A stretch of DNA of 59,251 bases, the filler included, from Dirinaria sp. TL-2023a (lineage: Eukaryota), in assembly GCA_051941275.1 (NCBI GenBank). It is 5 parts of 5 records of this genome, joined end to end, with 100 filler letters (N's around TTAATTAATTAA, not from the genome) between each part and the next. Parts side by side here need not be neighbours in the genome. Positions count along the whole stretch, not along the records: positions 11,904 to 23,681 come from JAVEBF010000817.1; 4 more parts are not named here. One strand, given 5' to 3'. Both the position numbers and the translations under genes were made by a program. Positions 23,029 to 23,681 of this stretch are shown here, piece after piece. The notes under the pieces were generated by a model. The model was not told where the DNA came from. It did no database searches and saw only the letters and a program-made list of their open reading frames with translations. Positions within the stretch are counted from its first letter, which is position 1, and the number at the start of each line of letters is the position of its first letter.

Positions 23029-23681
23029 TCAAATAAGTGCCGAAATTGCTACTAGCAAACATGTTTTGTTTTGGTCTGAGGGCTTCATTGGTATTGCCCA
23101 GTAAGAATTGAAGACATTCGTCATGAAGTAGACATCAAAGTCTGAAGCAATCAGAGTGATGATTACTTCTTTCAGATGATGTACGAGATAGATCGACTTG
23201 ATAATGTATTTATTCATCGATATGAAATTGTGAATCACTCGAAGCAGAGACGAATCTTTCTTCTTTGATGAGAACTTAGTTCGATGTCCTCAAGAGCTGC
23301 TTCTTCGTGCTATTATGTCGGCTTCTTTCAGCTCTGAAAAAATGCGATTGACAAATTCTCTCTCTGTCATAATGTATTTGGGCAAGAAGTTAATGATCGG
23401 CCTCGCATTTGATTTCAGGTCAATAGAATGTTCTATCAAATCTGTTGCTTTAATATCCCTAATACGGGGAGCGAAGCAGTTCTTTCATGTGTATATCAAT
23501 CGTTGCGCGAGTTCGCGGCGACGAGATGTGTCTGCTTTAGATCTTATGATTACTCCGCTTTCTTGTACTCATGCTTGAATCTCTGATAAGAGTGTTTTAG
23601 AAAGCATCCTCTTCATTGACCGCCGTTCAGTAGAGAAATCCTCTCCCTTTTCTAAAGCATACTTTAGTGCTTCCCGTGCAC
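23029..23681 (-). mobile_element. Degenerate Ty3/Gypsy LTR-retrotransposon pol fragment (N-terminal reverse transcriptase), heavily mutated
   Basis: The minus frame reads RLIYT*KNCFAPRIRDIKATDLIEHSIDLKSNARP...REFVNRIFSELKEADIIARRSSS*GHRTKFSSKKKDSSLLRVIHNFISMNKY...NSYWAIPMKPSDQNKT, matching fungal Gypsy RT motifs with in-frame TGA stops. Confidence 0.88.

Follow-up and report, generated by a model that had tools for sequence, protein, structure and literature searches.

RIP contexts are defined by the base on the 3' side of the mutated cytosine (PMC2621366). The order of preference in N. crassa is CpA>CpT>CpG>CpC, and CpC is likewise ranked last in T. reesei (PMC5496416), where CpA and CpG are described as about equal. 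The third base is of little weight for the N. crassa CpA context (10.1101/344036), and the minimum repeat length for RIP is about 400 bp (PMC5555474). Signatures other than CpA are described for Botrytis, Sclerotinia and Magnaporthe (CpT) and for Tuber, Microbotryum and the rusts (CpG) in a ten-genome survey, which lists CpA, CpT and CpG and in which the lineage-specific context is proposed to depend on the set of methyltransferases (PMC4352252). Among 1,239 fungal genomes, RIP-like defences are reported to share the CpA preference, no Lecanoromycetes being included in the 130 strong cases (PMC12543289); the per-species k-mer tables of that study could hold a CpC signal.

With respect to lichens, RIP is described for Cladonia rangiformis and Xanthoria in the form of mutated AT-rich TE blocks, together with a RID homologue in Cladonia; in Cladonia the call rested on the GC content, which peaks near 16%, and in Xanthoria on the CpA-based RIPper, and the words 'CpC' and 'dinucleotide' are absent from the main texts on both lichens (PMC12542154, 10.1101/2025.11.25.690456, PMC13535494). 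The available text of PMC2621366, PMC5737583, PMC5555474, PMC8959702, PMC7882544, PMC4522978 and PMC11105155 contains no CpC-dominant case, and a motif search in that of PMC2432034 returned nothing. Altogether, no CpC-dominant RIP was found in the full-text searches, which covered main texts other than Clutterbuck 2011, and an earlier mention is possible. Clutterbuck 2011 is said to be the broadest survey of contexts.

The DNA analysed here, referred to at its full length of 59,251 nt as the window, is composed of contigs of the lichen-forming Lecanoromycete Dirinaria sp. TL-2023a (assembly GCA_051941275.1). Five contigs of similar length were joined artificially, and therefore the neighbours across the linkers are not real. 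The features are located as follows.

11804-11903, 23682-23781, 35545-35644 and 47404-47503: N-flanked TTAATTAATTAA linkers between the contigs
22867..23061, no strand given: solo-LTR-like repeat of 195 bp, beginning with TG and truncating the relic, with copies on other contigs
23062..23681, minus strand: Ty3/Gypsy pol relic (pre-RT region and N-terminal part of RT), partly CpC-mutated
23212..23340, minus strand, frame 2: motif FSELKEAD...HNFISMN, quoted in the sequence-only reading of this DNA and aligned to P0002 and P0003
23290..23292, minus strand: TGA stop at codon 130 of P0001, Trp in the relatives
23485..23487, minus strand: TGA stop at codon 65 of P0001, Trp position
23569..23571, minus strand: TGA stop at codon 37 of P0001, Trp in P0002
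58700..59251, no strand given: second CC/GG-stripped repeat block at the end of contig C820, recognised by its composition and shared end

The relic is truncated at 23681 by the end of contig C817 (JAVEBF010000817.1), which the linker 23682..23781 joins to the next contig, and sister pieces are located on contigs C2717, C2804 and C3090. The whole of 23029..23681 had been taken for a Gypsy RT; the pol relic covers 23062-23681, but 23029-23061 turned out to be the end of the solo-LTR-like repeat. This repeat is present at 95-97% identity on five other contigs, and is about 11 bp shorter at the relic-abutting end than the other copies (TG...CA); the one in L007, also TG...CA, is flanked by a 4-bp duplication. 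No target-site duplication is present where the truncated repeat meets the relic, pointing to a deletion between two elements.

P0002 and P0003, open-frame relatives that come from other sources in public assemblies, are 59% and 64% identical (the relic aligns to them at 57-60%), and both read FPELEDAGIIVRRSSPWGARTKFPPKKKGS at the quoted motif, so that the intact motif proposed earlier proved correct. The domains of P0002 are arranged in the order RT, RNase H and integrase (the Ty3/Gypsy pol order), and the relic pieces of the Dirinaria genome match its residues 9-557 and 642-975. A Pfam search of the relic detected no RT match left, and even the open relative P0002 falls below the Pfam RVT_1 cut-off. 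The RT catalytic motif in P0002, P0003 and L066-L072 consists of MDDH or VDDH-type residues.

At the positions where P0002 and P0003 agree, Pro was replaced in the window copy by Ser at nine of 13 sites (three kept, one Leu), Gly was changed at five of seven (Asp in three), and Trp was turned into TGA at two of three. The in-frame stops of the relic are three, every one TGA and each opposite Trp in P0002; the Trp-to-TGA changes recognised earlier are thus real, but had been counted as two. The open-frame relatives hold Pro, Gly and Trp at the altered positions, not Ser or Asp, indicating that Ser, Asp and TGA are derived as had been supposed. When the four relic pieces of this genome, which share ancestry so that the events are not independent, were taken together, Pro had become Ser at 56/76 of the P0002=P0003 sites (three kept), Gly had become Asp or Glu at 47/67 (two kept), and Trp had become TGA at 18/19, with zero TAG. 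Gln was kept at 18/20 sites and none was turned into a stop, His at 27/33, Cys at 10/10 and Met at 24/29, and all 20 in-frame stops over the four pieces are TGA. Pro, Gly and Trp codons are destroyed, most of those for Gln, His, Cys and Met are retained, and TGA is the stop that results. As a control, the relic L073, a member of the same Gypsy family from another source, carries eight TAG and three TAA stops with a CA o/e of 0.39, and keeps Pro at 13/27 and Gly at 13/21 sites. This is ordinary CpA RIP within the same family, and therefore the CpC pattern is a property of the host rather than of the element.

The base composition of the relic follows the same direction. The number of CC plus GG within 23062-23681 is 28, as against 48.9 +/- 5.8 in shuffled sequences, of which one in 10,000 was as low. 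For 23029-23681, the o/e values are 1.09 for CA/TG, 1.45 for TC/GA and 0.62 for TA, so that CA/TG persists, as had been noted, and TA is not raised. The window copy is only partly mutated, with a CC o/e of 0.57, and its three sisters are near saturation (0.11, 0.08 and 0.02). Across 589 tiles of the window the median CC o/e is 0.94, with minima at the relic and at the 3' repeat block. This block (58700-59251) has a GC content of about 25%, a CC o/e of 0.0-0.16 and a CG o/e of about 3, and its final 90 bp are shared with at least 14 further places. It is preceded near 58630-58670 by telomere-like AACCCT units.

The extent of this composition was estimated with a sample of 57 small contigs chosen by number, giving 177 windows of 500 bp; small contigs are repeat-rich, and the values represent no fraction of the genome. 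A CC o/e below 0.4 was found in 30 of the 177 sample windows, spread over 15 contigs and classed by composition alone. Among the 32 sample windows below 38% GC, 23 were CC-stripped and none was CA-stripped. The median CC o/e was 0.06 at 30-36% GC, whereas it was 0.95 above 48% GC (0.95-0.96 in GC-normal windows). Stringent detection of CpA RIP employs a TpA/ApT of at least 1.1 and a substrate index of at most 0.75; these thresholds were passed by 0/177 sample windows, and the composite index was positive in one of the 30 CC-stripped windows. GC-normal DNA is spared, and the mutation appears confined to repeated DNA.

The context of C>T change was counted by using natural open-frame contigs of the same genome, C1331 and C1265, as references and degenerate copies as targets. 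Alignments with less than 80% identity or shorter than 100 bp were dropped, leaving three of eight loci for C1331 and five of 12 for C1265. The Gypsy family of C1331 showed 176 C>T, four T>C and one transversion in 1428 aligned bases, and the C>T changes were distributed as CpC 134/162, CpT 29/183, CpA 13/157 and CpG 0/153. For the Gypsy family of C1265, 339 C>T, 30 T>C and 39 transversions were counted (CpC 256/520, CpA 37/593, CpT 33/523, CpG 13/315); one of its alignments, L063, with CpC 4/26, no preference for CpC and 16 transversions, was excluded from the doublet and CCN counts described below. The window copy, compared with its two sisters, gave 69 C>T, six T>C and one transversion (CpC 38/46, CpT 20/142, CpA 11/134, CpG 0/76). 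A DDE_1 DNA transposase was also affected (CpC 25/41, CpG 1/110), its reference itself being partly mutated (33 reverse changes vs 55). The dependence on repeat length is mixed relative to a minimum of about 400 bp: a 190-bp repeat family (L088:3-190, more than 30 copies) is nearly spared, with CpC 23/405, even where it adjoins a mutated transposase, and unclassified 250-bp pieces, possibly fragments of longer elements, show CpC 138/264.

CpC leads in every longer-repeat family counted, with CpA at 6-8% and CpG at 0-4%, and the repeat classes affected are three Gypsy families, the DDE_1 transposase and the unclassified 250-bp piece. The polarised changes are neither spread evenly over the CpN contexts nor led by CpA, and the RIP-like system with CpC specificity that had been proposed from the window alone is supported. 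The accompanying claim that all changes lie at the 5' C of CpC holds as to the dominance of CpC, but roughly 6-16% of the CpT and CpA sites were changed as well. Open pol frames of about 1313-1315 aa are kept in L042 (G000:C1331) and L051 (G000:C1265), beside heavily mutated copies. The open copies of these families have so escaped or post-date the mutation, and the contigs may be collapsed copies.

The target within CC was determined with isolated doublets. Among 439 of these, 289 were changed to TC/GA, nine to CT/AG and 15 to TT/AA, and 122 stayed as they were. The target is therefore the 5' C of CC, on both strands. The 3' C of CC, being the middle C of the triplet, was changed in CCA at 2/48, in CCG at 0/30 and in CCT at 7/56 sites. 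Which base precedes the target makes little difference (ACC 34/43, GCC 28/35, TCC 49/56), and the +2 base has a strong effect (CCA 138/180, CCG 72/110, CCT 156/241, CCC 20/124), rates of about 65-77% falling to 16% when this base is C. The isolated CCC/GGG triplets, 70 in number, gave 41 CTC, five TTC and no TCC, and similar numbers of CTC and TTC would be expected if both Cs were changed at equal rates. Since the 5' C is targeted on both strands and CCC is disfavoured, the rule is C-C-D (D = A, G or T). In the C1331 family, 130 of 134 CCD sites were changed (97%), the two strands being alike. One partly mutated copy showed a strand bias (33/76 vs 48/64, p=0.0003), as a burst would give, and the other six alignments were unbiased. 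These observations altogether show that the repeats carry dense, directional, two-strand C>T mutation at C-C-D.

The reading favoured here, to which a probability of about two in three is given, is RIP with premeiotic homology recognition and RID-catalysed conversion, its context being shifted to C-C-D. By analogy with established RIP biology, repeats would be detected premeiotically through their DNA homology; the cytosine would be flipped and turned into U or T by an enzyme resembling a C5-cytosine-methyltransferase, most likely the RID-like protein of this genome, and the change would become fixed at replication. The context preference of the enzyme would have moved to a 3' C, and the process would be self-limiting, in that a block with its CC exhausted would remain at about 30-36% GC, with much TC/GA and CG. 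Against this shift of RID stands the fact that lichens with RID relatives, such as Xanthoria, are reported to have RIP as called by the CpA-based RIPper.

The candidate RID-like gene (L010/L011; G000:C1379:1-2700, minus strand) gave a PF00145 match with an E value of 6.8e-30, and its frame is open until the contig end. It carries the PPCQ catalytic motif, and in motif VI EQT instead of ENV; we take EQT to be the mark of RID/Masc1, and the gene is termed RID-like from this mark rather than from a tree. In one protein search, the relatives of its product that bear a name are from lichen-forming Lecanoromycetes, and those of Caliciales (Dirinaria, Physcia) stand nearest. Where most lichen relatives have SDAH and, after EQT, GL[IL]RRH, the product and its nearest relatives have SPAH and GL[IL]SGH (seen in P0014-P0016 and P0018), and these differences may offer a weak lead to the context shift. 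The catalytic-loop change SPAH was considered as the cause of the shift, but this candidate is weakened by the presence of SPAH also in relatives from Monilinia and Pseudogymnoascus. The 3' part of the gene, with the likely target-recognition region, was searched for in the assembly and not found. A search for longer methyltransferase relatives gave RID-like proteins only; four Teloschistales records among the lichen RID-like proteins (P0140-P0143) are predicted as fusions to exosome Rrp6-type domains (PF01612, PF00570, PF08066), and these fusions may be merged gene models.

The alternative that survives best, though we regard it as unlikely, is somatic, methylation-driven decay: during the long life of the thallus, a DIM-2-type enzyme missed by the assembly, or another C5-methyltransferase, would methylate heterochromatic repeats at CCD, and the 5mC would deaminate over time, with no premeiotic homology search. 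Such decay would involve the same chemistry and the same 3'-neighbour context, the saturation is mostly strand-symmetric, and Dim2 is said, in a Zymoseptoria paper, to raise the mutation rate in repeats. A second methyltransferase-like gene is indeed present as a weak match on contig C712 (L065; G000:C712:4324-7551), presumably DNMT5-like by its motifs. DNMT5 is, however, a CpG enzyme, and CpG is the spared context (0/153), kept and enriched in the repeats of this genome. DIM-2 itself was found by none of the PF00145, TIGR00675 and BAH searches, although the assembly, of 27.7 Mb in 3105 contigs, is fragmented and may lack the enzyme: PF00145 and TIGR00675 returned the RID-like and DNMT5-like genes only, and the BAH search yielded five matches, distributed over four loci. 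The stretches examined around these matches contain no methyltransferase sequence, and three of the matches look like RSC, SNT2 and ORC1. In addition, the 97% saturation of CCD with one transversion per 1428 bases would need a very fast process.

Far less probable is a cytidine deaminase (APOBEC/AID- or DddA-like) that edits the cDNA of the element or is recruited to repeats. The dense C>T mutation would suit such an enzyme, and so would the context at first sight, because APOBEC3G acts in CC; it hits, however, the 3' C, on one cDNA strand. Targeting of the APOBEC3G type was rejected by the doublets, in which the 5' C was changed in 289 and the 3' C alone in nine of 439, on both strands. Enzymes of the APOBEC, AID and DddA types read the 5' neighbour, but the 5' neighbour of the target hardly matters here and the 3' C of CC is spared. 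That both strands and a DNA transposon are affected excludes editing restricted to cDNA.

UV damage at dipyrimidines, poorly repaired in the repeat heterochromatin of a sun-exposed lichen, has hardly any chance of being the source: the top two contexts, CpC and CpT, are dipyrimidines, but UV favours the 3' C of TC and CC and tandem CC>TT changes, whereas TCA was changed at 3/46 and TCG at 0/53 sites, CC>TT accounted for 15 of 439 doublets, and GC-normal DNA keeps its CC. This explanation is largely refuted by the spared TC context. An artefact is the least credible of all, be it contigs from a different organism in which TGA encodes Trp and the composition is unusual, an error of assembly or damage to the specimen. 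The assembly is indeed of the fragmented metagenome type and the relics read long under TGA=Trp, but contig C817 carries an ordinary aminotransferase ORF besides the relic, C1265 holds an open-frame element together with a mutated copy, conserved sites have lost Pro and Gly, and the changes are directional and context-specific. An alternative genetic code and foreign contigs were likewise rejected.

The scar of C-C-D mutation, with its loss of Pro and Gly codons, has a counterpart in protein databases. P0004 and P0005 contain 0-1 Pro and zero Gly, and among the best 150 cluster representatives for P0004, Pro plus Gly amounted to less than 2% in 26 and to none in 18; the query being itself free of Pro and Gly, these numbers give no prevalence. 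For 28 Pro/Gly-poor proteins (including P0293, P0005 and P0004), all with at most 62.5% identity to the Dirinaria loci compared, conserved Pro sites were occupied by Ser, Phe or Leu at 287/362 and conserved Gly sites by Glu, Asp, Lys or Asn at 256/340, and Trp was kept at 70/78. As Trp is kept where Gly is lost, the gene caller probably read TGA as Trp. The DNA source of the Pro/Gly-free proteins was found in neither the viral nor the prokaryote collections, and a metagenome scan gave 11 loci, none CC-stripped and one with classical CpA RIP. These proteins are likely to come from other lichens. The CpC scar probably also leaves spurious Pro/Gly-free proteins in databases, one of which, P0293, bears in its source the bacterial name 'DNA phosphorothioation-dependent restriction protein DptG'.

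A wider proposal, which we hold tentatively and would not yet call probable, is a switch of RIP at the level of lineage: RID, acting by itself with no DIM-2, would mutate C-C-D in several lichen-forming fungi and spare CpG and CpA, and the repeats would escape CpA indices, the TGA stops leading to long Pro/Gly-free 'proteins' in databases. If this were true, the RID residues responsible for reading the +1 and +2 bases could be located from such natural variants of specificity, and the view of a shared CpA preference among RIP-like defences would be overturned. Even for Dirinaria by itself, the near-saturating CpC process is a counter-example to that shared preference. The CpA indices score such a process as absent, so that RIP may be called too rarely in lichens, and with it the cryptic sex that it implies. 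How RID picks and converts its cytosine would become testable with a natural enzyme of opposite preference.

Compared with the known systems, the mutation in Dirinaria is similar to N. crassa RIP in being a dense, directional, two-strand C>T change with a 3'-base context that affects both retro- and DNA elements, in a genome with a RID-like gene. It is different from N. crassa RIP with respect to the order of contexts, which is CpC>>CpT>CpA>CpG, CpA not being dominant, to the strong effect of the +2 base, at which C is disfavoured, and to the stops generated, which are TGA and not TAA or TAG; DIM-2 was not found in the assembly. The relic differs from an intact Ty3/Gypsy pol in being a dead fragment that lacks a Pfam RT match. 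As for lichen RIP, unlike the blocks of Cladonia and Xanthoria, those of Dirinaria are mostly at 30-36% GC and negative on CpA indices. Set against the ten-genome survey with its classes CpA, CpT and CpG, in the main text of which 'CpC' occurs 0 times (PMC4352252), the CpC context of Dirinaria represents the missing fourth class.
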